From: Odoribacter sp. UBA944
GTDB lineage: Bacteria; Bacteroidota; Bacteroidia; Bacteroidales; Marinifilaceae
Assembly (NCBI GenBank): GCA_002293375.1
Contig: DBDA01000021.1
Location: 26,305-90,304 of the forward strand
Length of the DNA stretch: 64,000 bases
Reading direction: 5' to 3'
The notes beneath the pieces are model-generated. The model was not told the DNA's origin. It was given only the letters and a program-made list of their open reading frames with translations, and made no database searches. The translations under genes were made by a program, and so were the position numbers. Positions 27,611 through 54,361 of the stretch are shown here, piece after piece (the stretch's first letter is position 1; every line of letters begins with the position of its first letter).

Positions 27611-27625
27611 TTAAGCGTTTTGGCC

Positions 27626-30600
27626 ATGATAAAAAGAGTACATTGGGTGATGTTGTTGCTGTTGCTGGCGTGGGGAGCGCAAGCGCAGGAGGAAGGAGCT
27701 GCCGTTAAGCTGGGAACCGGAGCGAAGGTGAAAAATACGATTATCTGGGGAAACAAAGGCATTCAGTTGAATCCGGAAGTTACTCCGGAAACTTCTCATA
27801 TTTTTGCACCGGGGGTGGCATCTCCCCTTTTCCTGGATTCGCTGAACGGAGATTTCCGTTTGAGAAAGGGGTCGCCCCTGATCGATTCTGCCGATGTGGA
27901 TACCGATGCCGGGATGGGCCTTTATTTTGATGAAAACGCCCTTGATTTATGGGGAAATCCCCGCCTGAGCGGTACGAAATTCGATATCGGGGCGCACGAA
28001 TACCGGCTTTATAAGATTAGGTTCATCAAGGCACCCGAGGTCGTTATTGAGCAGGTGGCGGTGGATGGGCATGCCAGTGACTCCAATGGAGTGCATCTGG
28101 GGGAGACCTATAAATTCAGGCCCGTGTACGACGGTATAACGGGAATAGAGACGGACCTGGTTATTGTGCGGGACCTTACTTCGAATGAACTGATACCGGA
28201 TGAGGACGGGTATTATTATATCAGGGACGTTCAAACAGATAAAGAGGTCGAGATCATTGTGACGCCTCCTATTTTTGTCCGGGCCATGAAGAGTGCGAAC
28301 GGAATAATAGCGGTGACCAGAGAGGATAACACTACTGTCTCGACGCTTGTTAAGGATACGGTTATGGTGGTGGAGGAGAACGAGGAGGTGCGTTTGGATA
28401 CGACGGCGGACGAGGGGTACTACTGTTACGATGTGTATGTGGCAGCAGATGCAACCGGGCCTTGGTCATCCATTAAAAGCAAGGTCGGTGCAGGAAAATC
28501 TTATGCCGTTACGGGGGATGTTTGGTTTAGAGCGGAGTTCCGGCCCCGGTCCATCTCTATTGAATTGGAGGTAAACGACAGAAGTCGCGGAACGATCACT
28601 GTGACCGACAATGATTCTCCTCCCAATACTTACACGTTGGATGCCGGGAATACCGGATCGGGGAGTTTTACCTATGCGCCCGACAGGAGTTTTTCCGTAA
28701 CAGTCGCCCCGGAAACCGGCTATGAGTTGTCCTCGTTGACGGTATACGACGCGGACGGGAGTTCAAATGCCGAAGTCATCACCGCCGCCAAAACAACGAA
28801 TATGAGGTTGAACGGGTTGGTGATCAAAGCCGTTTTTGTACCGCTTACATATACGGTAACCTGGGATCCGCTCTATGCGACGCTTGTTGTTACACCGGGA
28901 ACAATGGAAGTGAACCCGTCCGGCGGGTTTATGATCGAAGAGGTAGAATACAATACCACCCTAACCGTTACTGCAACACCAGAGGAGGGGTATAACGTTA
29001 CCGGACTGACGGCGAACGGATTGACTACGGGTGTCTCTGCGACCGGAACTCCTTATCAGTGGAGCTATGTTGTGAAGGGCAATACCGAATTGGATGTGAC
29101 AACCGACTTGCAAAAGCAGACGGTAACCATTACTTCCAATACGCCTTTGGTCTTAGCGAATACGTGGTCGACGGCCCCTGTTTTGACGGGCGCCGGGGGC
29201 GATGAAATAGCGTATGGGAGTACGTTGGAGATCACGGTGTCTCCGGCAACCGGCTATGAGTGCATCCGTGCGGTGGTGAACGGGGCGGCGCCTCAGGCGG
29301 TGACCGGAAATAAACTCACGCTGCCGGCAATTACTTCGGCCCAGACGGTGGAATTGCAGTTTACCCGCATCCCATACGAAGTAACCTATATCAATGCGAC
29401 CCCCACCATGGGGAGCCTGACGGTGAGTAAACAGGAGCCTGACGCCAGCGCCTGGACGGCTTTTGTGAGCAGTCCGGGCAGTGCGGCGTACGGGGATAAG
29501 ATCAAGGCGGAAGTTTCTCCGAATACCGGTTATAAGCTTAAATCCCTGACGCTGACCCCTGACGGGGAGGGCCCTGTGGATTATACGTCGGCAGGAACCT
29601 TTGCAGTGGACCTGGAGAAGGACCTCGCTATTGCGGCGGAGTTTGAGCCGATCCTGTATACTGTTACGTTGAGGAAGGTATATGATCCTGCGTATGCAGG
29701 GCCGGAAGTGACAGGTACGGCCCCGACTGAGGGGAAGGTGGAGCTGAAGGTGGGGGGAACTACCCGGTTGACGGTGGATTATTCGGATGCGGACCATACC
29801 GGGACGGTCCAGTTGCCTTACGGAACGGTGGTGCAGGTGGTCCCGACGACTAATGTGGACTATGTTACCGACAAAATAGAGGCGGACGGGACAGACATTA
29901 CAACTCTCCGGCAATTTACGGTGACGGGGGATGCGGAGGCCGATGTATGGATTGTATACCACAAGACCGATTTTGCGGTAACCTGGGAGACGGTTTACAC
30001 CGGTTTTACCAGTACGATCGATGTACAAAAATCAGGTGGGGGCACTGTTCTTAACGGCAGCAGTTATCCGACCGGTACTGCTTTGGAGGTGATTGTGGAC
30101 CAGCAGGCGGGGGAATTTTGTACGGGGGTTTTTGCCAACGGGGTCGATATTACCGGAACAGATCCAGTGGCGAATCCTCCCACGGCAAGTATTAGCGGGG
30201 AGGCGATCCACTTTACCGCCGAGTTTGTTAAAATGTGTCGTGTTAAAATTACACCTCCGACGGGGGGCACCATTACTGTGAAGGACGATAAGGGTACCGT
30301 TTATAACGACGGTGACCCGGTTCCGGCCGGTACGACGCTTAAGGCGACCCTGGTGACTACGCTTCCCGGTTATTATTGCACCGGGTTGACCGCCGAGGGA
30401 AATTCGTTGTATGCGTGGAGCGGAACCTCCACGACCTCTCCGCCCACGACCACCGGGGAGCAAACGTATACGATCCCTGTGAACCATGCAGGCGGTGATA
30501 TTTTGTTTACAGGGACCGCGGCAGAATACTACTGTGTCAGGTTTACCACACCGATTAACGGAACGCTGGCGGTTGAAGCCGACGGGACTGCCTTGTCTGC

Positions 30601-33600
30601 CGGAACGCAGTATTGGTATCCGAAGAATGCAGCGATCGGCATTACGGCGGAGAATACGACTACAGGGTATACATTGAATGCATCCCGTGTTGTAAACAAC
30701 GCGGCCGATGCTTCGACGATAGTGTTGGACGAGATCAGCGCCGACCACTACGGGTTGGCAGCTCCTTTGGGGTTGGTGAAAGAGTTGGACCTCTCTGCCA
30801 CGTTTGTAAAGAAGGAGTACGCTGTTACGTTGAATTTGACAGGCCTTGGAGCAGCAAGCCGGACTGATGCCCTGGCGGCTATCGGGTTTACGGGGACCGG
30901 AGCGCCCGATTTAGATGTATTGTGGGAAGATGCAACTGATATAAGTGTCACTGTGCAGGTGGCCCACGGGGATAAATTGACCTTGCGTGCGGAACCTAAG
31001 CCCGGTTTTGCTGCCAAGCTGCAATTCAACTCTGTGGACGAACTGTCTCTTACCATGAATGTGATCAATCGGACAACGCCTGCCATTACGGGGCCGATGG
31101 TGATAGATCTAATCTTTGAACAGACTTATCAGGTTGATTACGATCCGACAGATATTTTGAAAGTGACCAAGGGGGGGAATGCAGTAGTCCGAAATGCGTA
31201 TGTGTTTGCCGGCGATGTGTTGCGGGGCTATACGGTGACCCCGGCCGTTTCTGACAAGTACAACAAGCTGGTCGTTTACAACAGTAGCGGCATGTCGGAG
31301 TATGTCAGCGGTATGGCTACGCAAAGCGACGGCACCATTGAATTGGACTTTACGATGCCGGCTTATAACGTGTATCTGGATGCGGAAAAAGGGTTGAAAA
31401 CTTTTGATCTGTCCACTGACCTCACAGATCCTTCCCTTGCAGCTACCCTGACGGTAAATAACCTGAAGGGCGGCCCTCCGGTGGAAGTTGTGGCGGGCAG
31501 TGATGTCTTGGCGTACGGGGATGAATTGCGGGTGGATATTACTTTACCTGCCAATGACGACCCGGCGCTGGGCGCTTTGACGGAGTCGTTGTATGAGGTA
31601 AAAGCCGTTCGGGTAACGATGGGTGGAACCAATCTCTCCGGTTCTTTGTCCGGTTCCGGTCTGGCATATAGTTATGCGGTTCCGCTACCGGTTTCGGGAG
31701 ATGTGGCCGTTACCGTTACCCTTGCGCGTAAAAGGCAGCATCTTATTTTACGGGTTGTCCCGTCCGGCAGGGATTTTGGGATTGAATGGAGTTGCGATAC
31801 CCTTCCCGGAGGCGCGTGGACGACTCCGGTTGTCTACAAAGGTCCTGCAGCCCAAACAAGTATTTCGTTGCCGGTGGGCACGAAGGTCAAAGCACGGGCT
31901 GTCGGAAGCGAGGAGGGGTATGAGTTGGAGTTTTTCCCGACCAGCGGTCAACAAATAACGACAGAGATTGACCGACAGTTGCAACTTGGTGGGAGCCTGA
32001 ATTTGTCGGTTCGCTTCAGACAACAAACATTCCCGTTACAGGTTACGGTAAAACCGGCAGGAGGCGGAGTGTTGAAATGGAGTGGCAGCGAATTGGTCAC
32101 GCAACGGGTTGTGTACGGCACATCGCTTTCTTCCATTGTTCCCGAACCGCTGAATACCTATTTCCGGTTGGATTCGGTAACGGCCTATATGGGTGGGGTC
32201 AATTTGTTCAAGAATCAGGTGTCTCCTTATGAAATAAGCAAGGTAACCGATTCGGTGGGTATTGAGATGCGTATGACCCGCCTGTATAAGATCCAGAAGG
32301 ATGTAGTGGGTGCCGGAGATATCGAGATACGCGAATTTGGGCAATCGGTTTCTGCCGTAGACGGTTTGTTTCCGGCGAATACCATTTTTCAGATAACGGT
32401 TTCCCCTCAGGACGACAGTTATGAATGTGTTTCCTTGCAGGCAATGCACTCGATGGGGGGTAATGCATTTATTCCGTCCGCCGGGGGATTGTATAGTATT
32501 AACCCGAGTTTAACTCAATACGATATTGTTATCCGGGCGGAATTTGCTTTAAAGACGCACGAAGTTTTCGTTCAGCGCGAACCTGTCGGAGGAGGGAATG
32601 CCGTTTTGTACCAAGGGGATAAAAGTAGCGGGGGAATTTTGTTGCTGGAGTTGGCGAACGATGATCCGCAGACGGCGACCATGCCGGTGTTGGTGGAGCA
32701 CGGGACTACTCTGCATTTTTATGCGGAACCTAATGGAGCGGATTATGAGGTTGCTTCCCTTGTGACAGGCGCAAACACGCTTTATACCCAGGGACAGCTG
32801 GTGGTGGTTACTTCGGATACCGTTTTCTCTGTGTCGTTCGGACGATTGTACCGGTTGCAAATTTTAGATGATAGCGTACAGGTGTATACATCCGGCGGGA
32901 TTAAACTTCCTGCGGACACGATGCTTGCGGAGGGTACGCCGTTGTATTTTGCAGCCAGCCGGTTTGGGAAGGCGTATACGGAGGTGACCCTCCGGGAGAC
33001 GGGAGCGGACCCGGCGGATCCAGCCCTGGAAGCGTGGACGACGGCGACCGACGGGGTGATCGAAGACCATTTTGAGATGCCGGGAGTCGATGCCGAAGTG
33101 AACGGCGCCAGCGATTGGAAGCGGTATACTGTACGGTATTCCGTTGCTCCCGATCCCCACGATGTACCGTCCGGAGATGGACAGTCTGCTATTACTGTAC
33201 GCTCCTTTACCGGTGTGTCGCCGGGAGTGCCTGTCGCCAATGGCGGTTCGGTGCAGCACGGAGATTCTTTGGAGGTGGTGCTGACCCCCCATGCCTGGTA
33301 CGATGTTGTGTCTATGACGGCGACTGTGGACCGTGTGCCGGCCGGTGTAAAATCGGGGGCGGATACGTTGCGGATCGCGGAGGCGCTGGGCGATGTGGAG
33401 ATAGCGGGTGTGGTGCTACGGAAGCAGCAAAAACTTTACATTTACCTGGAGGAGGAGGCGCTGGCTGATGGAGATACTGTCCGGGTGATCACGGAAGATG
33501 GAATACGGCATGACTATTTGGTATCAGACAGTTTGCCGGTAGATGTTGGTTCGAAAGTGGTTGTACAGGCTTTGTCCGGCTCCGCTTGTGTTATGGATTC

Positions 33601-35824
33601 GTTGATCACCGATCTGGGTGGGCGAGTCGTTGCTAAACCTTTTGAAACGACATTTGATATGCCGGTTGACAAAACGGCTTCGGTGACTGCTTATTTTTCT
33701 CTAAAAGAGTATCCGGTGCTGTTTGCGACTACTGAGGGAGGTACGATCATGGTTACGCCGACCTTTGACGGGGCGGTCGGTTCCCCGATAGACTCCGGAG
33801 ATTTGGTCAAACATTATACCGAATTGGCGATTTCCCTGACTGCGACGAGTGCTTCGTATATTTACCGGCCAGGCAATTTTATTACCCGGGTGGGAGCGAA
33901 TGTGGCTGCAAATCCCGCTGTGGTGCCTTCCGTGACGGATACGGTGCGGATTGAGGCGACGTTTGAACGGGTGTACGAGGTACGGGTGGTTCAACCGGAT
34001 GTGAAGCAGGGAACGCTGACTATTGCTTATGCGGGTAACAGTGCGGTGGGGAAACGGTATCTGGCCGGTACGGAGTTGGATGTAGCGCTTGTTCCACAGA
34101 CGGGGTATGAAGTAACCGGGCTTTTCATGAACGGGGTTTCGCAGGCGATCCTCCCGGCAGGCGGTGTTATTGTGTGTGAAGTTCCGGACAATCCGGCGGT
34201 GGATAGCGTAGAGTTTACGGTTACGTTGGCGGTGAAGCAGTATGATATTAAATATTTTGTATCCGGGAACGGTTCTTTGGCGGTGGAAGGGATGGCCGGC
34301 GGCCGGGTACTTTATAGCGATGTGAGCGGGGTGAGTCGCGCTGTTTCTCATTTCGATACGCTCTACCTGGAGGTGTCTCCGGGCTCTCCGGCTTACCGGG
34401 CGGTGAGGTATATTGTGAACCTGCCCGACGGAACTCCCCTTCCGGTGACGGCGACGGATACTGCGATCGTGGTGACGGGAAACCTGACTGTGGAGGTGGA
34501 ATTCGAGAAACAGTACGTAGTCATGTTTGAACAACCGCAGCAATTGCCGCGCCCGGAGGGCACTCTTACTGTTACACAGGACGGGCGGAACATCACTTCC
34601 GGGGAGTATGTGTGGGTGCCGCAACTTCAGAGTACCGGTTCGTTGTCTATAGACCTGGTTGAAGGGGAGGGGTATGATGTGGAGTTCCTGACGGTAAACG
34701 GTGTGGCGGTCAGCCAGCCTTTCGGGTTTGGATTTGCGAAAGAGGAGTTGTTCGATACCATTGTGATCGATGCGCAGTTGAAAGTCCGGGAACTTACCGT
34801 GGCGGTTGTTCAGCCCGCTTATGGAAAGATTGATTTGGTGGAACGGTCCGTTGATGATGGGGCGACCTGGCAGCCTTTGCCGGTGTTGACGCCTGTTACG
34901 GTGGATTATTGGGATCAGATCCGCGCTTTTGTTACTGTGGATGATCCCGCCCAGTTCCGGACGGATCACCTGTCGGTTGTGTCGGCGAGCGGTACGGGTT
35001 CGTTGCAGGAAGGGGTGGCGTGGACGATGAAGGAGGATGTGGTGTTGGAGGCGGTGATCATTCCCAACACGTATACTGTTTATTACGAGCAGCCGGACAA
35101 CGGGGCGTTGTGGGTGGAAACGTTGAACGGGGATACGGTTCGGGATGGCGAAGCGGTTTATTACCTGACGAAATTGATCGTCCGGGTGCAATTGGACGAC
35201 GAGGTCGGGTATGAATTGGCGGAGTTGACTGTTGATAATGTGGGGGTGGATGACCAGGATACCGTTACGGTGGAAGCAGATATGTATGTGTTTGCCCGGA
35301 TCGCCCTGCGTACCTGGGAGGTAACGACTTCGGCTACAGGACAGGGAGTTATACATGTTTACGATGAGCATGGATATGAGATATCTTCCCGGGCCGATCC
35401 CGGGTTGGTGAACCATTATGAGCGATTGCAGATCTCGTTCCGGCCGGCTGCGGGTTGGATGCTTTATGCACACGATTTGACCGGAACAGCTATGCAGCTC
35501 GACTCTACTTTTGTGGTGGAGGGGCATGTGGCGATCTTTGCGGATTTCCGGCAGATGGAGGAGTATCAGTTCCCGGCTGTTTTTACGCCGAACGGAGATG
35601 GTCAAAACGATACCTGGCAGGTGAAAGGTCTGTGGCAGGATCCGGAGAATACGTTGGAGATCTACAACCGGATGCAGCAACGGGTGTATAAGGTTTCGCC
35701 TTACCTGAATGAGTGGAACGGAACGACGGATGACGGAACGATCCTTCCGGCCGGGCATTACATCTATAAGTTGACGACCGGGAAAAAGGTGCATACGGGG
35801 ATCGTCTCTATTGTGAGAAATTGA
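27626..35824 (+). CDS. giant T9SS type B CTD surface repeat protein (SprB-like cargo)
   Basis: The track ORF is 27620..35824 (2734 aa, TTG). An ATG at 27626 gives 'MIKRVHWVMLLLLLAWGAQAQ'. After the signal peptide there is a beta-helix closing cap ('GDFRLRKGSPLIDSAD...DLWGNPR...FDIGAHEY'). About 25 divergent ~90-100-aa beta-sandwich repeats follow, each with a 'P..GY.(V/L)..L..NG'-type signature that resembles divergent InlB B-repeats. The C-terminus is a T9SS type B sorting domain. Confidence 0.85.
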   Translation: MIKRVHWVMLLLLLAWGAQAQEEGAAVKLGTGAKVKNTIIWGNKGIQLNPEVTPETSHIFAPGVASPLFLDSLNGDFRLRKGSPLIDSADVDTDAGMGLYFDENALDLWGNPRLSGTKFDIGAHEYRLYKIRFIKAPEVVIEQVAVDGHASDSNGVHLGETYKFRPVYDGITGIETDLVIVRDLTSNELIPDEDGYYYIRDVQTDKEVEIIVTPPIFVRAMKSANGIIAVTREDNTTVSTLVKDTVMVVEENEEVRLDTTADEGYYCYDVYVAADATGPWSSIKSKVGAGKSYAVTGDVWFRAEFRPRSISIELEVNDRSRGTITVTDNDSPPNTYTLDAGNTGSGSFTYAPDRSFSVTVAPETGYELSSLTVYDADGSSNAEVITAAKTTNMRLNGLVIKAVFVPLTYTVTWDPLYATLVVTPGTMEVNPSGGFMIEEVEYNTTLTVTATPEEGYNVTGLTANGLTTGVSATGTPYQWSYVVKGNTELDVTTDLQKQTVTITSNTPLVLANTWSTAPVLTGAGGDEIAYGSTLEITVSPATGYECIRAVVNGAAPQAVTGNKLTLPAITSAQTVELQFTRIPYEVTYINATPTMGSLTVSKQEPDASAWTAFVSSPGSAAYGDKIKAEVSPNTGYKLKSLTLTPDGEGPVDYTSAGTFAVDLEKDLAIAAEFEPILYTVTLRKVYDPAYAGPEVTGTAPTEGKVELKVGGTTRLTVDYSDADHTGTVQLPYGTVVQVVPTTNVDYVTDKIEADGTDITTLRQFTVTGDAEADVWIVYHKTDFAVTWETVYTGFTSTIDVQKSGGGTVLNGSSYPTGTALEVIVDQQAGEFCTGVFANGVDITGTDPVANPPTASISGEAIHFTAEFVKMCRVKITPPTGGTITVKDDKGTVYNDGDPVPAGTTLKATLVTTLPGYYCTGLTAEGNSLYAWSGTSTTSPPTTTGEQTYTIPVNHAGGDILFTGTAAEYYCVRFTTPINGTLAVEADGTALSAGTQYWYPKNAAIGITAENTTTGYTLNASRVVNNAADASTIVLDEISADHYGLAAPLGLVKELDLSATFVKKEYAVTLNLTGLGAASRTDALAAIGFTGTGAPDLDVLWEDATDISVTVQVAHGDKLTLRAEPKPGFAAKLQFNSVDELSLTMNVINRTTPAITGPMVIDLIFEQTYQVDYDPTDILKVTKGGNAVVRNAYVFAGDVLRGYTVTPAVSDKYNKLVVYNSSGMSEYVSGMATQSDGTIELDFTMPAYNVYLDAEKGLKTFDLSTDLTDPSLAATLTVNNLKGGPPVEVVAGSDVLAYGDELRVDITLPANDDPALGALTESLYEVKAVRVTMGGTNLSGSLSGSGLAYSYAVPLPVSGDVAVTVTLARKRQHLILRVVPSGRDFGIEWSCDTLPGGAWTTPVVYKGPAAQTSISLPVGTKVKARAVGSEEGYELEFFPTSGQQITTEIDRQLQLGGSLNLSVRFRQQTFPLQVTVKPAGGGVLKWSGSELVTQRVVYGTSLSSIVPEPLNTYFRLDSVTAYMGGVNLFKNQVSPYEISKVTDSVGIEMRMTRLYKIQKDVVGAGDIEIREFGQSVSAVDGLFPANTIFQITVSPQDDSYECVSLQAMHSMGGNAFIPSAGGLYSINPSLTQYDIVIRAEFALKTHEVFVQREPVGGGNAVLYQGDKSSGGILLLELANDDPQTATMPVLVEHGTTLHFYAEPNGADYEVASLVTGANTLYTQGQLVVVTSDTVFSVSFGRLYRLQILDDSVQVYTSGGIKLPADTMLAEGTPLYFAASRFGKAYTEVTLRETGADPADPALEAWTTATDGVIEDHFEMPGVDAEVNGASDWKRYTVRYSVAPDPHDVPSGDGQSAITVRSFTGVSPGVPVANGGSVQHGDSLEVVLTPHAWYDVVSMTATVDRVPAGVKSGADTLRIAEALGDVEIAGVVLRKQQKLYIYLEEEALADGDTVRVITEDGIRHDYLVSDSLPVDVGSKVVVQALSGSACVMDSLITDLGGRVVAKPFETTFDMPVDKTASVTAYFSLKEYPVLFATTEGGTIMVTPTFDGAVGSPIDSGDLVKHYTELAISLTATSASYIYRPGNFITRVGANVAANPAVVPSVTDTVRIEATFERVYEVRVVQPDVKQGTLTIAYAGNSAVGKRYLAGTELDVALVPQTGYEVTGLFMNGVSQAILPAGGVIVCEVPDNPAVDSVEFTVTLAVKQYDIKYFVSGNGSLAVEGMAGGRVLYSDVSGVSRAVSHFDTLYLEVSPGSPAYRAVRYIVNLPDGTPLPVTATDTAIVVTGNLTVEVEFEKQYVVMFEQPQQLPRPEGTLTVTQDGRNITSGEYVWVPQLQSTGSLSIDLVEGEGYDVEFLTVNGVAVSQPFGFGFAKEELFDTIVIDAQLKVRELTVAVVQPAYGKIDLVERSVDDGATWQPLPVLTPVTVDYWDQIRAFVTVDDPAQFRTDHLSVVSASGTGSLQEGVAWTMKEDVVLEAVIIPNTYTVYYEQPDNGALWVETLNGDTVRDGEAVYYLTKLIVRVQLDDEVGYELAELTVDNVGVDDQDTVTVEADMYVFARIALRTWEVTTSATGQGVIHVYDEHGYEISSRADPGLVNHYERLQISFRPAAGWMLYAHDLTGTAMQLDSTFVVEGHVAIFADFRQMEEYQFPAVFTPNGDGQNDTWQVKGLWQDPENTLEIYNRMQQRVYKVSPYLNEWNGTTDDGTILPAGHYIYKLTTGKKVHTGIVSIVRN
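35564..35821 (+). other. T9SS type B C-terminal sorting domain (gliding-motility-associated CTD / CHU_C type) of the giant protein
   Basis: 'YQFPAVFTPNGDGQNDTWQVKGLWQDPENTLEIYNRMQQRVYKVSPYLNEWNGTTDDGTILPAGHYIYKL' matches the hallmark 'F(T/S)PNGDGxND.W.I.G......(I/V).NRWG..V......W(D/N)G......(L/V)P.G.Y.Y'. Confidence 0.9.
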
Positions 35825-35868
35825 CGGGAGGCATGAGTCAGTGAGTTATAATTTAAAATCAGCATGTG

Positions 35869-38800
35869 ATGGGAACCATTCGACAGTATTTGTTGTTTTT
35901 GTTGCTTTTTGTTCCTTTTTGGGCAGATGGCAATAATGTTCGTGTGGTGGGTGTTGTTCGAGCCCCTGCGGATTTGCTTTCCGGCGGTGTAGCGACGATC
36001 CAGCTTACTTTGGAATGGGAGAATTCGTGGCGCGATGATTATAATCACGATGCGATCTATCTTTCTCTTCGCTACAAGGTATTGAGTGAATCGACGGTAG
36101 AGTGGCGTCCTGTTTATTTGCAGGACGGCGGTCACAGTGCTACGAACGGTTATGTCTATACGCTTTCTCCGGGCAGTGTATCCGGGCGTAACGCGGGTAT
36201 TTTCATTTATGCGGGGAGCGCCCGAACGGGAACCGCCCGAACCGCCGTTTCTTTGAAGTGGGATTATGGTACGACGACCGATCTGGAGGCGTTTCAGTTC
36301 GCTTCCTCCGATGTCGTGATCGCCTGTACGGGGATCGAGATGGTCTATATTCCCCGTGGCGCCTATTCTTTGGGCGATTATGCGAATACGCAGGACTCTT
36401 CTCAGTGGAATTTCCGCCAACGTGATTTTTACATTCCGGATTCTCTGAATTTGGTCAGTACGCAGTATGTGATCATGTCTCCGGAGTCTGTGGCGAGCAA
36501 TCCTCCCCATCTTGCGGCCAACCGTATCAACGATATCTCCGGTGTCGGCAGTGACGGGAGTATTACGAATGCCTGGATCGCCAACTCTACGGAGGCGACC
36601 CTTTTGTGGACGATCGATTTTGGCCGGCTGATCGGTCCCTCCGGCGACACGACAGAACTTCCTCCCGCCTCCTCTATTCGTCGGGTGGAGTACATCTCTT
36701 TGGAATCCCTTCCCGGTTACGCTCCTGCTGAATGGAGCTTTTGGGGTAATCGGGACAATCCCCTCACGGGCAGTTCCCCCTGGGAGGAGCTTTATCGCGG
36801 AACTTCTTCGGATTGGAATACGAGCCTTGAGCGTGTCTATCCCGGTCAGAAGCTGGTCCGTCTTCCGGCTCCCCGTAACTTTCGGGCGTACCGTATCATC
36901 GTCAATCGGGATCAAATGCCTGCGGGGCGCTCTCCTGTCCTGAAGACGGTCGCGATGGCTGACACTGCGCTCAGCCGGATTTTTGACCATACTTTTGTTG
37001 TAGATACAGTGGTTACCCGCATCGGTGGCGTTTACGGCCTTTTTTCCAATGACGGCGAGGTTAGCTGGAATACTTCCAGCACCCTTCCTTCGACCTATCC
37101 GAACGGTTACAACGCTTTCTATGTTATGAAGTACGAAATGTCCCAGGATCAGTATCGTGGTTTTTTGGGTATGCTTACCCCTTCGCAACAGCAACAGCGT
37201 ACTCTTGGCGCCTCTCTCGACGCCCTGGATCCTTTGGATAACCGGTATGTTTTCGGCAGCGACCCTACGCAGCCCAATTTCCGCAACGGTATCGTTGTGT
37301 CTTCCCGCAGTGATCAGGGCGATACCGTGGCTTTTGCCTGTGATCTTAATCGTGAGAACGGTGTTGCCGCGGATGGTGACGGCCAGGCTCTCGCTTGCAA
37401 TTACCTCACCCCGTTAGACATGCTTTCTTACGCAGCTTGGGTGGGTCTTCGTCCTTTGAGCGAATTGGAATACGAACGGATCTCCCGTGCGCCTTATCCT
37501 TACGTTCCTTCTGTGCGCGAGTGCGCCTGGGGAGGTGTTGACGCCATTCCTCCTTCGGGGTTGATGGACGGCGGTAAGATCAACGAACGCTTTTCGACGG
37601 GTAACATCAATTTTAACAAACGTCTTCCGGGCCCTTCCCGGGTGGGGATCTTTGCTTTGGAGGGTAATAGCCAATCGGCTTCCGGATCAAGTTTCTGGGG
37701 TGTGCATGATCTCAGCGGTAACCTGAGTGAACTGTATTACAACGTTAGTTCCACAGGGCGTACCTTCAATGCCACACGTCATGGCAACAGCGTTCACGAG
37801 TCCCTCAGTACGCTTGATGTTTGGGGGTGGGACACAACCTCCTCCTCTTTCGGTCTTCGGGGAGGTAACTTCCTGAGTACGATGGATATTGAGTTGGCAG
37901 TATCCGACCGCCGGAATGCTGTTCGGCACATCCGCAAGAACGACTTCCGGGATTCTACGGTGAGTTTCCGTCTTGGACGCAGTGTTCCGGAAGGCCCCAA
38001 ACTTTCGAGTATTCTTACGCTTGAGAATGGTCGTACAACCTCTTCCGGCAGCGTATCCGACACGGTATGTGACGGTTCCGATTACCACATCGTCGGTAAC
38101 AGCCCTCCCGGCACTTATGCGCTTTATTTCCTTTGGTACCGCAGCGAGAATTTGGGTAAGACCTGGGATTTGGTACGGGGTGAAAACGGCAGCGACCTTT
38201 TCTTGGAGGGGTTGACGAACCGCGGTATGCGGGCAGGTGTTTTGCATGAATACTGGTTTAAGCGTAAGGCTATTCGCGACAACAGCGATGGGGTGAGTTC
38301 TGTCGTAAAGATCGTTGTCGCAAATCCGTCTTATACCGTGAGCCGTCTTCGGGATACGATCGACGGTTACGGGAAGGGTGCGGGTATAACGGTAATAACG
38401 CGTTACCCGACTCAGTTTGAGTGGCGTTATTTGGCTACCGGGGCTGTTCTTCCGTCGACGAACAGCAGCACGCAGAGTTATTACCTTCCGGATCGGGCTC
38501 ACCTTTCCGATGGAACGGGTAAGCCCATGCACGGGAAGCGTACGGTGATGGTTACGATGCGGATCGCAGATGCTTGTGAGCGCAGTGAGATTATCGAGGT
38601 GGATGTGATCAATACGATGGACAAGGATATCATGAAGGTGAAGGATTATGGCGGTTACCGCGGTTGGGGCGAGGGTACGTATGCCCCGAGTTGTGAGGGT
38701 TACCGGCGGCCAACGGGTGGTTATGAGTACCGGGGGGATATCGGCAGCGGGATCTACCGGATCGATCCGGACGGAAGGCACGGTCCTTTACGACCGTTCG

Positions 38801-39246
38801 ACATTGAGTGTGACATGACTACAGACGGCGGAGGATGGTCGATTCTTCGTACGAATACGCCGAGAACACGACGTAGGGGATATGAAGGAGGCGGTCATGT
38901 GATTTTCTCGCATCTGCCTTACTCTGCAGTCGGGGTTGTCACAACGGAAGCACAGATTGTCGGTTTACGAGCGGTTTCGACATCTGGTTACCAATATGTA
39001 AAAAAAGAGTGTTTACACTGTGCAATGAGTTCCAGTTTGTGGTATACATACGGTTCTGGAGGTAGTATCTCTTATACGAATTGGCCGAATTATGCGAATT
39101 GCAGTCCCAATGACCAAGTTTGGCGGGAAGCATCCGGGAATATAACGAATGTAAACTATATCCCGGTCAGACAATTTACAGGGGATGATACGGGTGACAG
39201 TGTCGAAGATGCATATTATACTTTTGGAGACGTGTATTTCCGGTGA
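35869..39246 (+). CDS. GldJ-fold scaffold paralogue A, fibrinogen-like C-terminal head
   Basis: 1125-1126 aa (GTG at 35866 or ATG at 35869) with an SPI-type signal peptide. N-module 'NNVRVVGVVRA...LEWENSWRDDYNHDAIYLSLRYKV'. The FGE-sulfatase fold opens with 'GIEMVYIPRGAYSLGD' and resumes at 'FYVMKYEMSQDQY' ... 'LRPLSELEYERISR' ... 'FWGVHDLSGNLSELY' ... 'VSFRLGR'. The nested insert is 'NAWIAN...LWTIDFG...VEYISLES...EWSFWGN...FRAYRIIV'. The head carries 'SGIYRIDPDG...PFDIECDMTTDGGGWSILR'. Confidence 0.8.
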   Translation: MGTIRQYLLFLLLFVPFWADGNNVRVVGVVRAPADLLSGGVATIQLTLEWENSWRDDYNHDAIYLSLRYKVLSESTVEWRPVYLQDGGHSATNGYVYTLSPGSVSGRNAGIFIYAGSARTGTARTAVSLKWDYGTTTDLEAFQFASSDVVIACTGIEMVYIPRGAYSLGDYANTQDSSQWNFRQRDFYIPDSLNLVSTQYVIMSPESVASNPPHLAANRINDISGVGSDGSITNAWIANSTEATLLWTIDFGRLIGPSGDTTELPPASSIRRVEYISLESLPGYAPAEWSFWGNRDNPLTGSSPWEELYRGTSSDWNTSLERVYPGQKLVRLPAPRNFRAYRIIVNRDQMPAGRSPVLKTVAMADTALSRIFDHTFVVDTVVTRIGGVYGLFSNDGEVSWNTSSTLPSTYPNGYNAFYVMKYEMSQDQYRGFLGMLTPSQQQQRTLGASLDALDPLDNRYVFGSDPTQPNFRNGIVVSSRSDQGDTVAFACDLNRENGVAADGDGQALACNYLTPLDMLSYAAWVGLRPLSELEYERISRAPYPYVPSVRECAWGGVDAIPPSGLMDGGKINERFSTGNINFNKRLPGPSRVGIFALEGNSQSASGSSFWGVHDLSGNLSELYYNVSSTGRTFNATRHGNSVHESLSTLDVWGWDTTSSSFGLRGGNFLSTMDIELAVSDRRNAVRHIRKNDFRDSTVSFRLGRSVPEGPKLSSILTLENGRTTSSGSVSDTVCDGSDYHIVGNSPPGTYALYFLWYRSENLGKTWDLVRGENGSDLFLEGLTNRGMRAGVLHEYWFKRKAIRDNSDGVSSVVKIVVANPSYTVSRLRDTIDGYGKGAGITVITRYPTQFEWRYLATGAVLPSTNSSTQSYYLPDRAHLSDGTGKPMHGKRTVMVTMRIADACERSEIIEVDVINTMDKDIMKVKDYGGYRGWGEGTYAPSCEGYRRPTGGYEYRGDIGSGIYRIDPDGRHGPLRPFDIECDMTTDGGGWSILRTNTPRTRRRGYEGGGHVIFSHLPYSAVGVVTTEAQIVGLRAVSTSGYQYVKKECLHCAMSSSLWYTYGSGGSISYTNWPNYANCSPNDQVWREASGNITNVNYIPVRQFTGDDTGDSVEDAYYTFGDVYFR

Positions 39247-39310: not shown

Positions 39311-42300
39311 ATGAACCGTTTTTTATTAGTTGTTTTGTTATCTGTTTCGGGAAAGGTACTTTTTGGCGACAATTTGCATTTCTCGGAGGTCCGTGTAGTT
39401 TCCGCGTCGGATACGGAGGCTGCGTTGGAGTTTGTTGTTTCCTGGAACAACTCCTGGCGAACGGCTTCCAATTTGGATGCGGTTTATCTGTTCGGGAAGT
39501 ACAAGTTCTCCGACTCTTCGGATTGGCACCATCTTTATTTTACAACAATTGCTGCCGACCACACTTCGGATGCCGCTACGGAACAGCTTCCTGTTAACGG
39601 TGGTCGTGGTCTTTTTGTTCGCCGTTCTGCCAGTGGCCGCGGTTCTGTACAGGCAACTCTTCAATTGAAGGTGAACCTGCTGGGGAATGTTTTGCTTCCG
39701 CTTACGGCCTCTGCCATCACTTCCGGCGATCTCCTTTTTTCGATTCAGGGGATTGAAATGGTGCTGATCCCTGCGGCTTCTTTTTACGCGGGCGATCAAG
39801 AGGCCTCCGGCGCTTTTTCCAATGCTGCCTTTGGAACGATCCTGCCGGAATATGATCTGATCCGTATAGATTCGGGTTATGTTTACTCTTCCAACGGCTC
39901 TGAGAGTATGAATGCTTCTCGTGTTGCCAACCGCCACAAACAGGGAGTCTACGACGCCTCCGCCCGTTTAGATTGGTGTGGGACGGCCATTCCGGCTATG
40001 TGGCAGGTGGATTTTAAGACGGCTAAAAAGATCCTTTATTTTGGTGTTTCCGGTGTTTCGGGTTTGAGTTGGGGCGGTTTTCCTCCGGCACCTGCGGGGG
40101 ATTGGTTTCTGGAGGGTTCCAATGATAACTCCGTTTGGATGGAGTTGTGGCGAGGTGATCCAACGTATTGGGGGCAGTCGGCGGTATCTTATCCGGTTCA
40201 GGCGATTCGAGTGAGTACCCCGGGCAGTTACCGGTATTACCGGATCCGCGTTACAGACAACCAGTGTTCTGCTTTGTGGAATAACATCCGCATCAATAAT
40301 GTGGGGATGACGGAGAACGATCTTTCGAAAATCTCCGGCGATGCTTTCCCTGTCCGGATCGCGAATGAAAATACCATTCTTCCCACATACTACCCGTCCG
40401 GTTTTCACGGTTTTTATGCGATGAAATACGAGTTGAGCCAAGAACAGTATGTCAATTTTCTGAATATGCTTCCGCGTTCGGCACAATACGAGCGTACGAT
40501 GGGCGGTTTGCTGGACGGTTTGGAAGAAGGAGAGTATATTTTCGGCGACCGGCGGGATGCACCCTCTTTCCGCAACGGGATCATTTTGAAACAGAAATAT
40601 CCGAATACCGGATTGCCGTATGTTTTTGCCCATGACCTTACCGGGACGGATTTAGATAATTCCGGGACGGACGGTCAGACGGTGGCCTGCAATTACCTTT
40701 CTCCGTCCGATATGTTGGCTTATGCGGAGTGGAGCGGGCTGCGGCCTTTGAGTGAATTGGAGTACGAAAAGATGTGCCGGGGAGCTTTTCCGGAGGTGCC
40801 GAAGGGCGGATCCTTTGCTTGGGAGTGGAGTGAAGTAGAACCGTTAACGGATGTGGTCCGTTTGGGTGAACCGGAAGAGGCGCTTTTACCCGGTAGCACG
40901 GCAAATGCTAATCTTGACGGCGGATCCAACACCGTCGGCGCTCCTGTTCGTGTGGGGCTTTTTACCCGTCCGGGGGAGCGAAAACAGGCGGGGCTTTCTT
41001 ATTGGGGCGTTTCTGACCTGACGGGCAATTTGAGCGAGATATACTGCAATACCGGCGTGTATGGACGGCAGCAGAATCGTGCGGTACACGGCGGCGGGCG
41101 ATTGGATGCAGACGGCAGACACGTTGTTCCCGGTACCGATTGGCCCCGTGAAAAAGATGCATACGGTGTTCGCGGAAGCGACTATGCGACTCCGGTAAGC
41201 GAGGCCTCTGCTTTTGAGCGCCGCCGTGCCGAAGGTTATTTTACAGGTATGGCCGAACGCTTGCCCATAACCGGTGTCCGTTTGGGTTTTTCGACAGAAC
41301 CGGTTCGTATGGTTGCGCACTTAACGTTGGAGAATGGTTTGCGTTCTTCTTCCGCTTTGGTATACGATACGGTTTGCGCTTCGCTTGCCTACTGCATAAA
41401 GGGAGAGAGGATCGGTGCTCCGGAGGCTTCTGTCAAGTACCTTTGGTATGAGAGCACGGACGACGGCGTTTCCTGGCAATTATTGACGGAAGCAGGGTGT
41501 GATCTCATCCTCCGGAACCTGACGGATCGTGTTCCGGAGAATACAGTTCGCTGTTTCCGGTACAAACGGATCGGTGTGGCGTTTGAAGAGATGTCTGAAA
41601 CGGGAACGGTTTGTTTGGTTGTGGCGCATGGTTATACTGTTAATCGTTTTTCCGACACCATTCGCCCTTGCATGCTTTCTAACGAATTTCAAATTACGAC
41701 GCCCCTGCTCTCTACATTTGAATGGCGGTGCGTGGAGAGTGGAAAACGATTGGCTTCTTCTACGTCCCTTGTTTCTTCGTACGCGATTCAGATGGACGAT
41801 TTGAAAACCGATCCGACGGAATTTCCCAGCGGTAATTATAGTGTTCATGTTAACATCCTCATGGCCGATAAGTGTGTCAGCGACCTTTCTTTGCGGATTG
41901 ATGTTATTCCTGAGACTGTTTCTCCTTTTAAAAGTTCGGCTGATGTATCCTATGTGTATGGAACCAATACATTGGAACTGAATGATAATTGGGGTGGTCC
42001 GGATCGGCAGCAATGGAGTATTGTGGGCGGGAATTATGGAGATCTGTCTGTGAGTGCAGTTGGTGTTTTAAGCGGGATTGCTACTACTTTTCTGCGGGTG
42101 GAAGTAGAAGCTGTTTGCCGGGATTTTCCGGATCGGGTATACCGGAAAAGATGGTTAGAGACGCTCCGAAGCCTTTCTTATACGGGAGGTGTACAGCAGA
42201 TGGCGCTTCCCGGCGGCACTTTCCAACTGGAGTGTTGGGGGGCGCAAGGAGGAACTATGGAATCCGGCTGGACCGGCATAGGCGGATACGGGGGATATAC

Positions 42301-42931
42301 TAAGGGAAAATTGACGTTGGAAGCATGGCGGATGTTTTATGTGTATGTAGGCGGATCGGGACAGGGCTACAATTCAGGGCGCTCCACGCATGCGGGTGGT
42401 TGGAACGGTGGAGCTGCCTGTTATGGCGGCGCTTCCGGCGGGGGTGGCGCTACGGATATTCGAGTGACGGGCGGGGCGTGGAATGATGTTGCCTCGCTTC
42501 GCAGCCGGATCATGGTGGCTGGTGGCGGGGGCGGTTCCAATGACAATCAAAACGGTGGAGCGGGTGGTGGTTTAACCGGCGGTATCGGCGCCTGTTCCAG
42601 CGGATCCGCTGCTTCCGGTGGCACTCAGACCAGCGGTGGAACCGGGTGGGTAAACGGATCGTTTGGAACCGGCGGTGGTTCTCCCAACAATTACAGCGAT
42701 GGCGGGGCTGGCGGCGGTGGGTATTACGGCGGCGGAAAATCCAGCGGGAGCTCTTGTGCAGGAGCAGGCGGTTCCTCTTTTGTCAGCAATTATGCAGGGT
42801 GTAATGCGGTAAATGCTTCCGGAGTACACACCGGACAATCCGGGCATTTCAGCGGGTTGCTCTTTTCCGAAACGGGTATAACGGCCGGGCAGCGAACCGG
42901 CAACGGAATGATGAGAATAACATATCAGTAA
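39311..42931 (+). CDS. GldJ-fold scaffold paralogue B, glycine-rich C-terminal head
   Basis: 1206 aa with a signal peptide. N-module 'DNLHFSEVRVVSASD...VSWNNSWRTASNLDAVYLFGKYKF'. Split FGE fold ('GIEMVLIPAASFYAGD' ... 'FYAMKYELSQEQY' ... 'GLRPLSELEYEKM' ... 'YWGVSDLTGNLSEIY' ... 'GVRLGFS') with the insert 'WQVDFKTAKKILYFGVSGV...WFLEGSNDNSVW...YRYYRIRV'. The C-terminus is 'CWGAQGG...GGYGGYTKG...VYVGGSGQGY...GGGGATDIRV...RIMVAGGGGGS...'. Confidence 0.8.
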   Translation: MNRFLLVVLLSVSGKVLFGDNLHFSEVRVVSASDTEAALEFVVSWNNSWRTASNLDAVYLFGKYKFSDSSDWHHLYFTTIAADHTSDAATEQLPVNGGRGLFVRRSASGRGSVQATLQLKVNLLGNVLLPLTASAITSGDLLFSIQGIEMVLIPAASFYAGDQEASGAFSNAAFGTILPEYDLIRIDSGYVYSSNGSESMNASRVANRHKQGVYDASARLDWCGTAIPAMWQVDFKTAKKILYFGVSGVSGLSWGGFPPAPAGDWFLEGSNDNSVWMELWRGDPTYWGQSAVSYPVQAIRVSTPGSYRYYRIRVTDNQCSALWNNIRINNVGMTENDLSKISGDAFPVRIANENTILPTYYPSGFHGFYAMKYELSQEQYVNFLNMLPRSAQYERTMGGLLDGLEEGEYIFGDRRDAPSFRNGIILKQKYPNTGLPYVFAHDLTGTDLDNSGTDGQTVACNYLSPSDMLAYAEWSGLRPLSELEYEKMCRGAFPEVPKGGSFAWEWSEVEPLTDVVRLGEPEEALLPGSTANANLDGGSNTVGAPVRVGLFTRPGERKQAGLSYWGVSDLTGNLSEIYCNTGVYGRQQNRAVHGGGRLDADGRHVVPGTDWPREKDAYGVRGSDYATPVSEASAFERRRAEGYFTGMAERLPITGVRLGFSTEPVRMVAHLTLENGLRSSSALVYDTVCASLAYCIKGERIGAPEASVKYLWYESTDDGVSWQLLTEAGCDLILRNLTDRVPENTVRCFRYKRIGVAFEEMSETGTVCLVVAHGYTVNRFSDTIRPCMLSNEFQITTPLLSTFEWRCVESGKRLASSTSLVSSYAIQMDDLKTDPTEFPSGNYSVHVNILMADKCVSDLSLRIDVIPETVSPFKSSADVSYVYGTNTLELNDNWGGPDRQQWSIVGGNYGDLSVSAVGVLSGIATTFLRVEVEAVCRDFPDRVYRKRWLETLRSLSYTGGVQQMALPGGTFQLECWGAQGGTMESGWTGIGGYGGYTKGKLTLEAWRMFYVYVGGSGQGYNSGRSTHAGGWNGGAACYGGASGGGGATDIRVTGGAWNDVASLRSRIMVAGGGGGSNDNQNGGAGGGLTGGIGACSSGSAASGGTQTSGGTGWVNGSFGTGGGSPNNYSDGGAGGGGYYGGGKSSGSSCAGAGGSSFVSNYAGCNAVNASGVHTGQSGHFSGLLFSETGITAGQRTGNGMMRITYQ

Positions 42932-42937
42932 TGTGTA

Positions 42938-45900
42938 ATGAGTTGGATTAAACGTTTGTTTGTTTGGGGTGTCAGTCTCTGTGTATTTCCATTATATGGC
43001 GACAATTTGCATTTCTCGGAGGTCCGTGTAGTTTCCGTATCGGATACGGGAGCTGCTTTGGAGGTTACTGTTTTCTGGAGCAATTCCTGGTGCCACTCTT
43101 ACAATCACGATGCGGTATATCTGTTTGGCAAGTACAGCGAGGATGAGATTTCGGGTTGGCGTCATGCTTTCTTTTCTTCGGATGTTTCCTCTTATAGTGT
43201 TTCTGAAGGTTATAGTGTAACGCCGACCTCTGATGGTCGTGGTTTGTTGCTTCGTCGTACCTCTTTTGGGAGCGGAACTTCTGAGGCGACGCTCCGTTTG
43301 ACCTGGTCTCTTTCGGGCAATGAGCTTTCTGTGGTGTCTGCCTCTTCCGTTCTTTCGGGTGCTGTCCGTTTTTCTCTTCAGGGCCTTGAAGTGGTTTATC
43401 TTCCTCCCGGCCCCTTTTATGCGGGCGACGGGGTTTCGGAATCCTCCTTTTCGACCTCTTTTTTCGGCGGTATACCTTCGGAGAGCGATCTTATCGGCAC
43501 GGATGCGAGCTATGTTTACAGCGCGAACGGTAGCGAATCTTCGGGCGTGCATGCCGGCCGTGCTGCGGACCGGTACAACCAGGGAGTTTACGATGCCTCT
43601 TCCCGTCACGACTGGTGCGGTACGGTTCTTCCGGCAACCTGGCAGGTAGATTTCGGCCGCGCGAAGAAGATCCTGTATTTTGGTGTTTCGGGGGTCTATC
43701 CCGACAACATCCCTCCGGCTCCTTCGGGTACGTGGTACTTCGAGGGTTCTACGGATGGTTCTTCCTGGTCCCCTCTTTGGAGCGGCGGTCCTGAGTATTG
43801 GGGTCAGTCCCGCATCTCTTATCCTGTTCAGCAGGCGCTCCGTGTTGTTTCCCCGGGTTTGTACCGTTATTACCGTATCCGTGTGGATGGGAGCCAGCAG
43901 GCCGGTTACTGGAACACGATCCGGATCTCCAATGTGGCGATGACGGAGGATGATCTGTCTCTTCGTCCGACGGACCAAGCTGTTTTGATGGACGGTTTCC
44001 ACCCGGAACTTCCCTCTTCTTATCCATTGGGTACGGAAGGCTTCTATGCGATGAAATATGAGTTGACCCAGGAGCAGTATGTGACCTTTTTGAACCAGCT
44101 TCCCCGTTCAGCTCAATATGCGCGCACTATCGGCGGTGTGTTGGACCGTTTGGAAGAGGGTGATTATGTTTTCGGTGGCCTTCCGGGTTCTTCTTCCCAC
44201 CGCAACGGTATCGTTGTTCACGATCGGCGTTTGAACAGCGGTCTTCCGATTGTTTTTGCGTGTGACCTGGATCGTTCCAATCCCGCTAACGGTTCCTCCG
44301 ACGGTCAGTCGGTTGCCTGCAACTACCTGAGCCCCGCGGATCTGCTTTCCTATGCAGAGTGGACCGGTTTGCGCCCTATGAGCGAATTGGAATACGAGAA
44401 GATGGGCCGCTCCTTTTCCCCTGTTTCCGAGATTGGTGCTTTCCCTGCCTGGGGGAGCGCGCTTTACGTTCCGGGTACGGATCTCTCCTCTGCGGGAACT
44501 TCGCTTGAAACGGCTGTTCCTTCCGATGCCAATGTGAATGCGGAGGGTCATCTTCCCGGCCCTCTTCGTTCTGGTTCTTTTACTCGGGGTGGCAGTCGTT
44601 TTGAGTCCGGTATCTCTTTTTGGGGTTTGTCGGATCTGAGCGGTAACCTGAGTGAGATTTACTGCAATACGAACTCCTGGGGCATTCAGTTGTCGCGTTT
44701 TGAGCATGGCGGGGGTGAGGTTACTTCAGATGGGAAGCATCAGATTTCCGGCCTGTATTGGCCTTCCCATCCTCTTGCTTACGGCTGGCGTGGCGGGGAT
44801 TACGGTTCCGATCCTGTCGCTCTTTCTCTTTCCTATCGGGGTCGGTCTTCCTCCGGTGTTTATGACGATCTGTCGCTTCGTTTTCCTGTGGCGGGTATTC
44901 GTTTGGGTCTTTCATGGTCTGATCCTGTTGGTCGTTCGGAGTTGTTGCTTGGTAACGGTCTTTTGACGGGTGTTTCAGAGGTATGTGATACGGTTTGCGA
45001 CGGTACGGCGTATGAACTTCGGGGTGTTGATGTTCCGGGTTCCGATCCTGCCGTTTACATTTGGTACGGCAGTGACGATGGGGGTATTAGTTGGCAGAAC
45101 CTGCATGTGAACAGTGCTGTTTTGCGTCTTCCGGATCTTGTTTCCCGTGTATCTCCGGGTAGAGTGGTTTCTTTCCGGTACCGGCGTGTTGTTTATACGT
45201 CTTCGGGTCTTTTGGAGAGTGGGGTTGCTGTTTTGGTTGTCGGCCGGGGGTATACGACGGATCGTTTGTCGGATACGATTCGTCCCTGTATGGTTTCGGA
45301 GGGTTTTCATATTACGACGCCGCTGCCGGCAACGTTTGAGTGGAGATATATAGAGAGCGGCAAACAGGCAGCAGCAGTTTCTACCCCTTTTACGTCTGCC
45401 TGTTTTGTTCAGGTGGCGGATTTAAAGGAACGGCCTGAGGAGTTTCCGAGTGGCAACTACAGACTTGATTTGAAAATAAACACAGCGGGAAGATGTATTG
45501 ATAACCTTTCTTTGCAAGTGCATGTTACGTCGAATACGGTTTCTCCGTTTACGAAATCGGAAGAGCCGTATGTTTATGAATCCAATACGTGTATCCTGAA
45601 TGAAAAATGGGGTGGGCCGGACCGGCAACATTGGAGTATTGTCGGCGGCGGATATGGAAATCTGTCTATTGATGAAGCTACGGGAGTGTTAAGCGGTATC
45701 ACCACTACTTTTCTGCACGATGTTGTGGTAGAGGCTGTTTGCCGGGATTATCCGGACAGGACCTATCGGAAAACAGTAACAGAAACGGCCCGGATCATCT
45801 CTTATGTGGCGGCGGCGCAGCCCCTCGTTCTTCCTGCAGGAACATACAATATAGCGTGTTGGGGAGCGGATGGGGGGATGGGTAACGGAGGTTCGAATCC

Positions 45901-47013: not shown

Positions 47014-47045
47014 TTTGGGATTGCGATTAATTCTATTTAATTTTG
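47014..47045 (+). promoter_or_regulatory. candidate Bacteroidota sigma-A promoter (-33 TTTG / -7 TAATTTTG) for the D-E-F-giant unit
   Basis: TTTG at 47014-47017 and TAATTTTG (TAnnTTTG) at 47038-47045 are separated by 20 bp. They sit at the 3' end of a 472-nt strongly AT-rich gap, about 46 nt upstream of the ATG at 47091. Confidence 0.45.
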
Positions 47046-47090
47046 GTGGTAAGATTGAGGAGTATGTGTATCGATAGTGGAAAGAGACAA

Positions 47091-50630: not shown

Positions 50631-50665
50631 TAAAATAGGAATTAGTGAAAAAATAGATAGATAGT

Positions 50666-54331: not shown

Positions 54332-54361
54332 TGTAAAATAACAAGAGAAGATATCACAGAG

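Follow-up and report, generated by a model that had tools for sequence, protein, structure and literature searches.

We analysed a window of 64,000 nucleotides from Odoribacter sp. UBA944 (contig DBDA01000021.1, positions 26,305 to 90,304), which carries six tandem paralogous genes, A to F, at 35866-58054. The subject of this study is the C-terminal domain of the protein encoded by gene A, here called the head, which contains the motif CDMTTDGGGW. A preliminary description of this DNA had suggested that the head may be a truncated or remodelled fibrinogen-related domain (FReD). We found that it is instead a distant homologue of the C-propeptide of the fibrillar procollagens, the COLFI domain (Pfam: PF01410), and that it is one of three kinds of tip found on the same scaffold. 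The features of the gene and of its surroundings are collected in Table 1.

Table 1. Features of gene A, its head and the surrounding locus, with positions in the window
Feature	Position	Strand	Evidence
Gene A, 1126-aa secreted scaffold protein, head at the C-terminus	35866..39246	+	Open reading frame; N-terminal signal-like sequence
Scaffold common to paralogues B-F, residues 1-917	35866..38616	+	MAFFT alignment of the six paralogues
Complete head, residues 918-1126, COLFI-fold domain	38617..39243	+	AlphaFold2 model, Foldseek, profile A1
Opening subdomain C943...W991, common to FReD, COLFI and all bacterial GGGW heads	38692..38838	+	NF040941, PF00147
Core motif CDMTTDGGGW, last codon is the recombination breakpoint	38809..38838	+	Codon reading, blastn
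Tail, 135 aa, cassette with low GC content at third codon positions (GC3)	38839..39243	+	Tail-only profile A3, phmmer, GC3
Invariant Cys pair C1049 (39010-39012) and C1079 (39100-39102)	39010..39102	+	Alignments
Paralogues B and C, ALK/LTK-type glycine-rich heads (glycine-rich domain, GRD)	39311..46618	+	PF12810
Paralogues D, E and F, Fib_succ_major (FISUMP) heads	47043..58054	+	PF09603
Upstream 2734-aa cargo of the type IX secretion system (T9SS), CHU_C type B C-terminal domain	27620..35824	+	PF13585, E 2.4e-19, residues 2651-2728
PorP/SprF-type T9SS outer-membrane partner	22490..23497	+	PF11751, E 7.3e-42

Gene A is the first gene of the array and its product has a signal-peptide-like N-terminus. 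In the scaffold, residues 399-702 give a weak Pfam match to the FGE-sulfatase-like family (Pfam: PF03781), and a beta-sandwich domain of the scaffold ends directly ahead of the head. No collagen repeats were found anywhere in the 1126-aa protein. All six paralogues have their scaffold-head junction at residue ~917: in the MAFFT alignment they can be followed up to '...CERSEIIEVDVINT' ('...EVDVINT' in gene A) and are unrelated afterwards. The GRD- and FISUMP-headed paralogues thus share the scaffold of gene A and differ from it in the C-terminal tip. A COLFI-like tip is found once, glycine-rich tips twice (residues 963-1205 of B and 964-1222 of C, with E-values of 1.6e-40 and 1.6e-37) and FISUMP tips three times (E 1.7e-25, 8.2e-21 and 3.3e-17 in D, E and F).

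The fold of the head was identified by three independent lines of evidence. First, a profile built from eight full heads (A1) matched the C-propeptides of collagen alpha1(I) and alpha1(III) in the PDB (5k31 and 4ae2, respectively) over profile positions 21-194 with an E-value of ~2e-7; against FReD chains the same profile aligned at positions 23-74 only. Second, a profile of the tails behind the GGGW motif of 19 prokaryotic sequences (A3), from which the shared motif was left out, had 5k31 as its best PDB match (E 0.0023). Its positions 36-134 align with positions 143-252 of the 5k31 chain, through the blocks 'LRLMSTEASQQITYHCKNS', the Cys of 'DGC', 'LPI-DV', 'D-G---E' and the C-terminal 'GPV', while no FReD was found with this profile at E<=10. 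The preliminary description had noted that the last ~135 aa are unlike animal FReDs, which agrees with this result and with the 135 aa of the tail.

The third line is structural. An AlphaFold2 model of residues 926-1126, computed from an alignment of 23 sequences from the fetched loci, reached a predicted local distance difference test score (pLDDT) of 82.3 and a predicted TM-score (pTM) of 0.81. In a Foldseek search of the PDB with this model, all of the first 17 entries were procollagen I and III C-propeptides (top entries 5k31, 4ae2, 4aej, 4ak3, 6fzv and 6fzw), with E-values of 2e-9 to 2e-7 and a query TM-score (TMq) of 0.55-0.66 over ~225 columns. FReDs followed at E>=2.6e-4, with a TMq of 0.28-0.30 over ~122 columns. 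The superposition on FReDs, which had been suggested as a check, was thus poor, and the structures that did superpose were those of the procollagen C-propeptides. The Foldseek result depends on the AlphaFold2 model, whereas the profile results are independent of it.

The Pfam COLFI model itself does not match the gene A protein even at E<=10 (its gathering score is 26.2 bits), while seven of the eight aligned related heads match it at E<=10, the best with 9.6e-12. Because of this difference we call the head a distant homologue with the COLFI fold, which lies below the Pfam threshold for membership. Searches with a single sequence, by Pfam or phmmer, detect only the opening of the domain, so profiles are needed to see the remainder. 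Taken together, the full-head profile, the tail profile and the AlphaFold2/Foldseek comparison identify the heads of this type, hereafter type 1, as homologues of the fibrillar procollagen C-propeptide and not as complete FReDs.

Furthermore, we considered whether the GGGW stretch could be a chance motif or a decaying remnant with no folded domain behind it. A single-sequence AlphaFold2 prediction of the head was indeed poor (pLDDT 34.7) and the GC3 of the tail is aberrant. However, the opening matches NF040941 with an E-value of 4e-12, 65 tail-only homologues were found at E<=1e-3, Cys, Asp, Gly and Pro columns are invariant across phyla and the alignment-based model is confident. The open reading frame is moreover intact and its orthologues are conserved, with 47% identity in the tail. 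The tail homologues, the model and the invariant columns refute this explanation, to which we assign next to no probability. A convergent similarity limited to the short motif, which the preliminary description had allowed for, was likewise not what we found: the similarity reflects homology within a superfamily, although to its COLFI branch.

The relation to FReDs is confined to the opening of the domain. The codons TGT GAC ATG ACT ACA GAC GGC GGA GGA TGG encode CDMTTDGGGW at 38809-38838, as had been described, and the forward-strand translation of 38641-39243 reproduces the quoted peptide exactly. NF040941 (GGGWT_bact) is a 46-position NCBIfam model with a curated cut-off of 30 bits; with it the whole protein reaches 45.9 bits and the head 47.4, over model positions 11-44 and gene A residues 958-992. 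The assignment to the bacterial YCDxxxxGGGW family was therefore correct, and under the Prokaryotic Genome Annotation Pipeline the protein would be called 'fibrinogen-like YCDxxxxGGGW domain-containing protein'. In the 2.48-Mb genome the model has a single match (50 bits), and it matches none of 14 control genomes. Residues D967, G970, C982, D983, M984, G988-990 and W991 are invariant in the 23 aligned sequences.

The resemblance of the GGGW opening to the start of a FReD is true homology as well. With PF00147 (Fibrinogen_C) the protein scores 22.0 bits, which is just the cut-off, and the head scores 25.3. The first ~50 residues of FReDs (fibrinogen beta/gamma, ficolins, FIBCD1, tenascin, angiopoietin, tachylectin-5A) are homologous to the head and share with it the Cys of the first disulfide and the CDM-T-GGGWT strand. 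These matches, to FIBCD1, tachylectin-5A, ficolin and tenascin chains, and the 'fibrinogen-like' name of the NCBI family are what could speak for a remodelled or truncated fibrinogen-related lectin that binds acetylated sugars of host glycans. However, the match to PF00147 is restricted to positions 11-48 of its 221, and for the PDB chains (FIBCD1, tenascins, fibrinogen beta and ficolins) the alignment is confined to head residues ~30-72. In FReDs the Ca2+ site and the acetyl-binding pocket sit in the P subdomain. The B and P subdomains, and with them this Ca2+ site and this pocket, have no counterpart in the head, and PF00147 positions 49-221 remain unmatched. The Ca2+ and acetyl-pocket residues, whose conservation had been proposed as a check, are thus absent.

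The lectin interpretation is thus largely refuted by the tail profile, which finds no FReD, and by the Foldseek comparison, in which C-propeptides superpose at about twice the TMq of FReDs; we consider it improbable. The preliminary description had thought of the mimicry or binding of host glycans; the binding of acetylated host glycans is without any support. Its truncated or remodelled FReD has to be given up in favour of a domain of 200 aa that has, as a whole, the procollagen C-propeptide fold with co-linear motifs. What stands of its proposal of a ligand-binding tip on a Bacteroidota surface protein is the position at the C-terminus of a secreted protein; the tip is not a FReD lectin.

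The anatomy of the collagen domain has been mapped and allows a comparison feature by feature. The collagen I C-propeptide consists of a stalk (residues 8-29), a base (30-76) and a petal (77-246). Its base holds one Ca2+, an intra-chain disulfide Cys41-Cys73 and an inter-chain disulfide Cys47-Cys64, and its petal holds the disulfides Cys81-Cys244 and Cys152-Cys197 (PMC5353611). The Ca2+ site in the base is formed by the side chains of Asp59, Asn61 and Asp67, of which Asp59 (Asp1277) is a Ca2+ ligand required for trimerisation (PMC6181919).

As in the COLFI/NC1 structures 5K31, 4AE2 and 6FZV, whose whole-domain fold is the same as that of the head (Foldseek E 2e-9, TMq up to 0.66), the conserved blocks of the head are co-linear: 'Y-IDP-- ...V-C-M' in the base, followed by 'LS-E--Q---- C', 'C', 'LP-', 'D-G---E' and the C-terminal 'G----'. 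The tail profile A3 reproduces the blocks 'LS-TE--Q----C', 'C' and 'LP----- D-G---E'. In the alignments the opening subdomain corresponds to the base and the tail to the petal. For Cys41 and Cys73 the equivalents are C943 and C982; a Cys is found 31-39 residues ahead of the Cys of CDM in nearly all relatives, and C982 is invariant in the 23 aligned sequences. Cys152 and Cys197 correspond to C1049 and C1079, which align with 5k31 at 'YHC...DGC' and are both invariant (23/23). We infer from these positions two disulfides, C943-C982 and C1049-C1079. Of the three Ca2+ ligands, Asp59 is matched by the invariant D967 and Asn61 by D969 (Asp in 21 of 23 sequences), and the position of Asp67 is occupied by R976 (Asp in 9/23). 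The head may thus possibly bind Ca2+, with an Arg in place of the third ligand.

Several parts of the collagen domain are absent. The head belongs to a bacterial protein that is not a collagen; neither a triple helix nor the coiled-coil stalk of procollagen lies ahead of it. No Cys of the head aligns with the inter-chain Cys47 or Cys64, and the pair Cys81-Cys244 is absent as well. The head has GGGW where collagen has 'ETGETC', it is ~45 residues shorter than the C-propeptide and its chain-recognition region is reduced. Since the stalk, the inter-chain Cys, the Cys81-Cys244 pair and the collagen repeats are all missing, the head is a base and a petal without the trimerisation apparatus.

These differences bear on a second explanation, namely that the head mediates a collagen-like, Ca2+-dependent trimerisation or chain selection, by which three scaffold chains or chains of mixed paralogues would be joined into a fibre. 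The COLFI fold found by Foldseek is in line with it, as are the invariant D967 and the near-invariant D969 in 'IDPDG', at the positions of Asp59 and Asn61 of the Ca2+ loop (for the Ca2+ role see PMC6181919 and PMC5353611), and six co-encoded paralogues could need sorting. Against it stand the missing coiled-coil stalk, the lack of equivalents for the inter-chain Cys and the Arg at the position of Asp67. Moreover, only paralogue A has a COLFI-like head, which makes a sorting of the other five paralogues impossible, and the domain also terminates pilin-like proteins, which are not trimeric stalks. We therefore regard trimerisation as unlikely, though clearly less so than a fibrinogen-related lectin.

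The head can be divided further by comparison with its closest relatives. Full-length homologues of gene A are P0003-P0011 and P0039. P0007, which has the closest scaffold, shares 71% identity with the scaffold of gene A and 79% with its opening; for the tail the value falls to 21%, which is the noise level. P0003-P0006 are ~50% identical in the scaffold, 73% in the opening and 47% in the tail. At the DNA level, blastn aligned gene A (nt 127-2973) with the P0007 gene (L170:4798-8331) at 68.7% identity over 2891 nt, and the homology ends with the third base of the W codon of GGGW, at window position 38838. From there on P0007 has an unrelated tail of 183 aa that ends in ...FRIWIK.

The base composition changes at the same point. 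GC3 is 56.6% in the scaffold, 63.5% in the opening and 38.5% in the tail, with the drop at 38838/38839, and the total GC content is 45.2% in the tail compared with 53.3% in the scaffold. As the homology stops at the W codon and GC3 drops at the same point, the head is a mosaic in which a conserved opening is followed by a tail that can be exchanged, the two meeting in the GGGW-coding stretch. Low GC3 values of 33-39% are likewise seen in the type-1 tails of L001, L160 and L162, whose scaffolds have 42-50%, whatever the GC3 of the host gene. In P0007 the type-2 tail and the scaffold are alike (68% and 70%).

Homologues of the head fall into classes which have an opening of ~70 residues in common and differ in the continuation, and NF040941, which covers the opening only, includes bacterial proteins with at least three unrelated-looking tails behind it. 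The head of gene A is the COLFI-like tail type among them. A mixed alignment (A5) of tail types 2 (P0007, P0008 and P0010) and 3 (P0016, P0021 and P0022) had ficolin-3 as its only PDB match (E 0.6), which was driven by one canonical FReD in the set; both types may be intelectin-like. One of the type-3 proteins, the metagenomic P0016 of 623 aa, has an ALK/LTK-type glycine-rich domain followed by a GGGW head with the third kind of tail. A single chain can therefore combine tip types that paralogue A and paralogues B/C carry separately. In another metagenomic sequence, L091:286-1002 (contig Ga0307425_1011020), a GGGW head continues with canonical FReD P-subdomain motifs, 'GRGFTTYDADHDAS...NCS...WWYGNCW'. 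This protein looks like a complete FReD, unlike the head of gene A.

Type-1 heads, which end in ...YYTFGDVYFR, are found in four Odoribacter-like proteins (P0003-P0006) with ~54% identity in the head, and at 22-36% identity in Myxococcota, Bradymonadia, a Peregrinibacteria genome of the Candidate Phyla Radiation (CPR) and others. A metagenome scan raised the number of full-length type-1 heads by only ~4. The opening is present in nine of 81 genomes that cover 23 genera of the same family; only two of the nine, the window genome and G025 (L164), have the full type-1 head, and the other seven carry other tails. A genome of the same genus (G016) has no GGGW head.

A tail-only phmmer search against 1.84e9 representatives returned the 65 proteins mentioned above. 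They include an archaeal type IV pilin-like protein with a Pilin_N domain (P0051) and a CPR pseudopilin-like protein from Peregrinibacteria with a prepilin-like N-terminus (P0075, L008:5980-6555), as well as MopE-repeat and pentraxin/LamG proteins. In P0051, P0054 (archaeal-like) and P0075, the N-terminus is type IV pilin-like and the type-1 head is attached to it directly, and in the archaeal pilin-like, CPR pseudopilin-like and MopE-repeat proteins the relatives of the head stand at the C-terminus. Metazoan-like proteins carry one to three copies among SRCR, CUB, Xlink, Sushi, discoidin and SUEL-lectin domains. The carriers of tail relatives are all extracellular recognition settings.

The metazoan-like proteins P0040, P0041, P0055, P0062 and P0066 were detected by the tail-only search and contain tandem COLFI-like modules. 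These modules share with the head '...C-Q----- C--S ... ND--WR-D-G--T----LP------GDTG---E-----G-L' and have in addition a Cys-rich insert, 'C-CG...C...C-CD-ND'. Of the metazoan-like COLFI-like domain, Pfam detects the first ~40 residues or nothing. Contactin-associated proteins (CNTNAP/Caspr) have a 'fibrinogen-like' domain that the modules may resemble.

In a maximum-likelihood tree the head of the window groups with P0039, P0003-P0006 and Odoribacter sp. Z80 (support 98/99), all of which carry it on the same scaffold as gene A. This Odoribacter clade lies within a prokaryotic assemblage, and a branch with 99/97 support separates it from the clade of all metazoan-like rows. A recent transfer from an animal host was considered and rejected, because the clade sits among the prokaryotes on the other side of this branch. 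The tree has a midpoint root only and we claim no direction of transfer.

Phage proteins may also have versions of the COLFI/FReD superfamily. Foldseek found nothing at E<=0.001 among viral structures; weak BFVD matches (E 0.02-0.03, TMq ~0.3) were E3SJT6 and A0A6J5KYC4, cyanophage and uncultured phage proteins which are annotated as 'Fibrillar collagen NC1' or 'Fibrinogen C-terminal'.

The genes around the array include T9SS components. The upstream side holds the PorP/SprF gene, a DUF1565 gene, three small genes and the gene of the CHU_C protein, a SprB-like giant adhesin of the T9SS, and an Ig-repeat giant follows downstream. The order of CHU_C giant, GGGW head, two GRD heads and FISUMP head recurs on the two metagenomic contigs with P0005 and P0006 (L160:1-23357 and L162:1-14622), where the DUF1565 gene and the three small genes are kept too. 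The GGGW-head proteins on these contigs are only ~50% identical to gene A.

The explanation that best joins these observations is that the head is a stalk-less prokaryotic COLFI homologue which serves as the tail-swapped recognition tip of a duplicated scaffold, and we consider it reasonably probable. Residues 918-1126 form one globular COLFI-fold domain without a stalk, which would be stabilised by the two predicted disulfides and possibly by one Ca2+ ion. This domain is the distal tip of an exported scaffold of ~920 aa, made of a putative FGE-like fold and beta-sandwich domains, which is duplicated to six tandem copies with three kinds of tip beside the T9SS giant adhesin. There it may act as an extracellular module for recognition or adhesion, in which the tail would set the specificity; recombination inside the conserved stretch that encodes GGGW would let lineages exchange their tails. 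For the part of this explanation that concerns function we put the odds at even or slightly below: the role in recognition or adhesion, and with it a ligand, we infer from the setting of the head.

Several points weigh against this explanation. To our knowledge the only function of COLFI domains is collagen chain selection and trimerisation, not the binding of a ligand. The gene A protein itself is missed by the Pfam COLFI model, the alignment of 23 sequences behind the AlphaFold2 model is small, and gene A showed no T9SS C-terminal domain, no lipobox and no anchor of another kind. Furthermore, the low GC3 of the tail may partly reflect constraint and not recent transfer, as it is seen, to a milder degree, in three relatives too. 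The head of this protein of an Odoribacter-like gut bacterium probably belongs to a set of binding tips that can replace one another within a family of surface proteins.

Pfam COLFI matches on bacterial proteins are already present in precomputed annotations, and our search of the literature available to us for bacterial COLFI or FReD domains found no relevant paper on prokaryotic COLFI-like domains. New in this study are the full-length fold and profile evidence for a Bacteroidales protein, the comparison with the collagen domain feature by feature, the finding that one scaffold family has three types of tip, of which a COLFI-like domain is one, and the mapped recombination junction.

The C-propeptide of the fibrillar collagens is usually regarded as an animal invention that serves chain selection and trimerisation only. 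Here, with a confident fold and profile match, such a domain without the trimerisation apparatus is found as the free-standing tip of a secreted protein of a gut commensal, and several prokaryotic phyla have relatives of this tip on pilin-like proteins and on repeat proteins. As no lectin P domain is present, the database label 'fibrinogen-like' is misleading as a guide to function. A wider idea, which we offer tentatively and hold to be doubtful at present, is that prokaryotes (Bacteroidota, Myxococcota, CPR and archaea with pilin-like carriers) hold a diverse family of stalk-less COLFI-fold recognition heads, which would be the sister group of the metazoan collagen C-propeptide and the Caspr-type 'fibrinogen-like' domains and might have given rise to them. 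The GGGW-coding opening would then be a recombination socket for swapping specificity tails, COLFI-like or of at least two other types. The family offers a tractable outgroup with which to ask about the role of the COLFI fold before collagen, and the array of six paralogues, in which the tail breakpoint has been mapped, lends itself as a natural system to studies of how Bacteroidales vary the specificity of their surface proteins.

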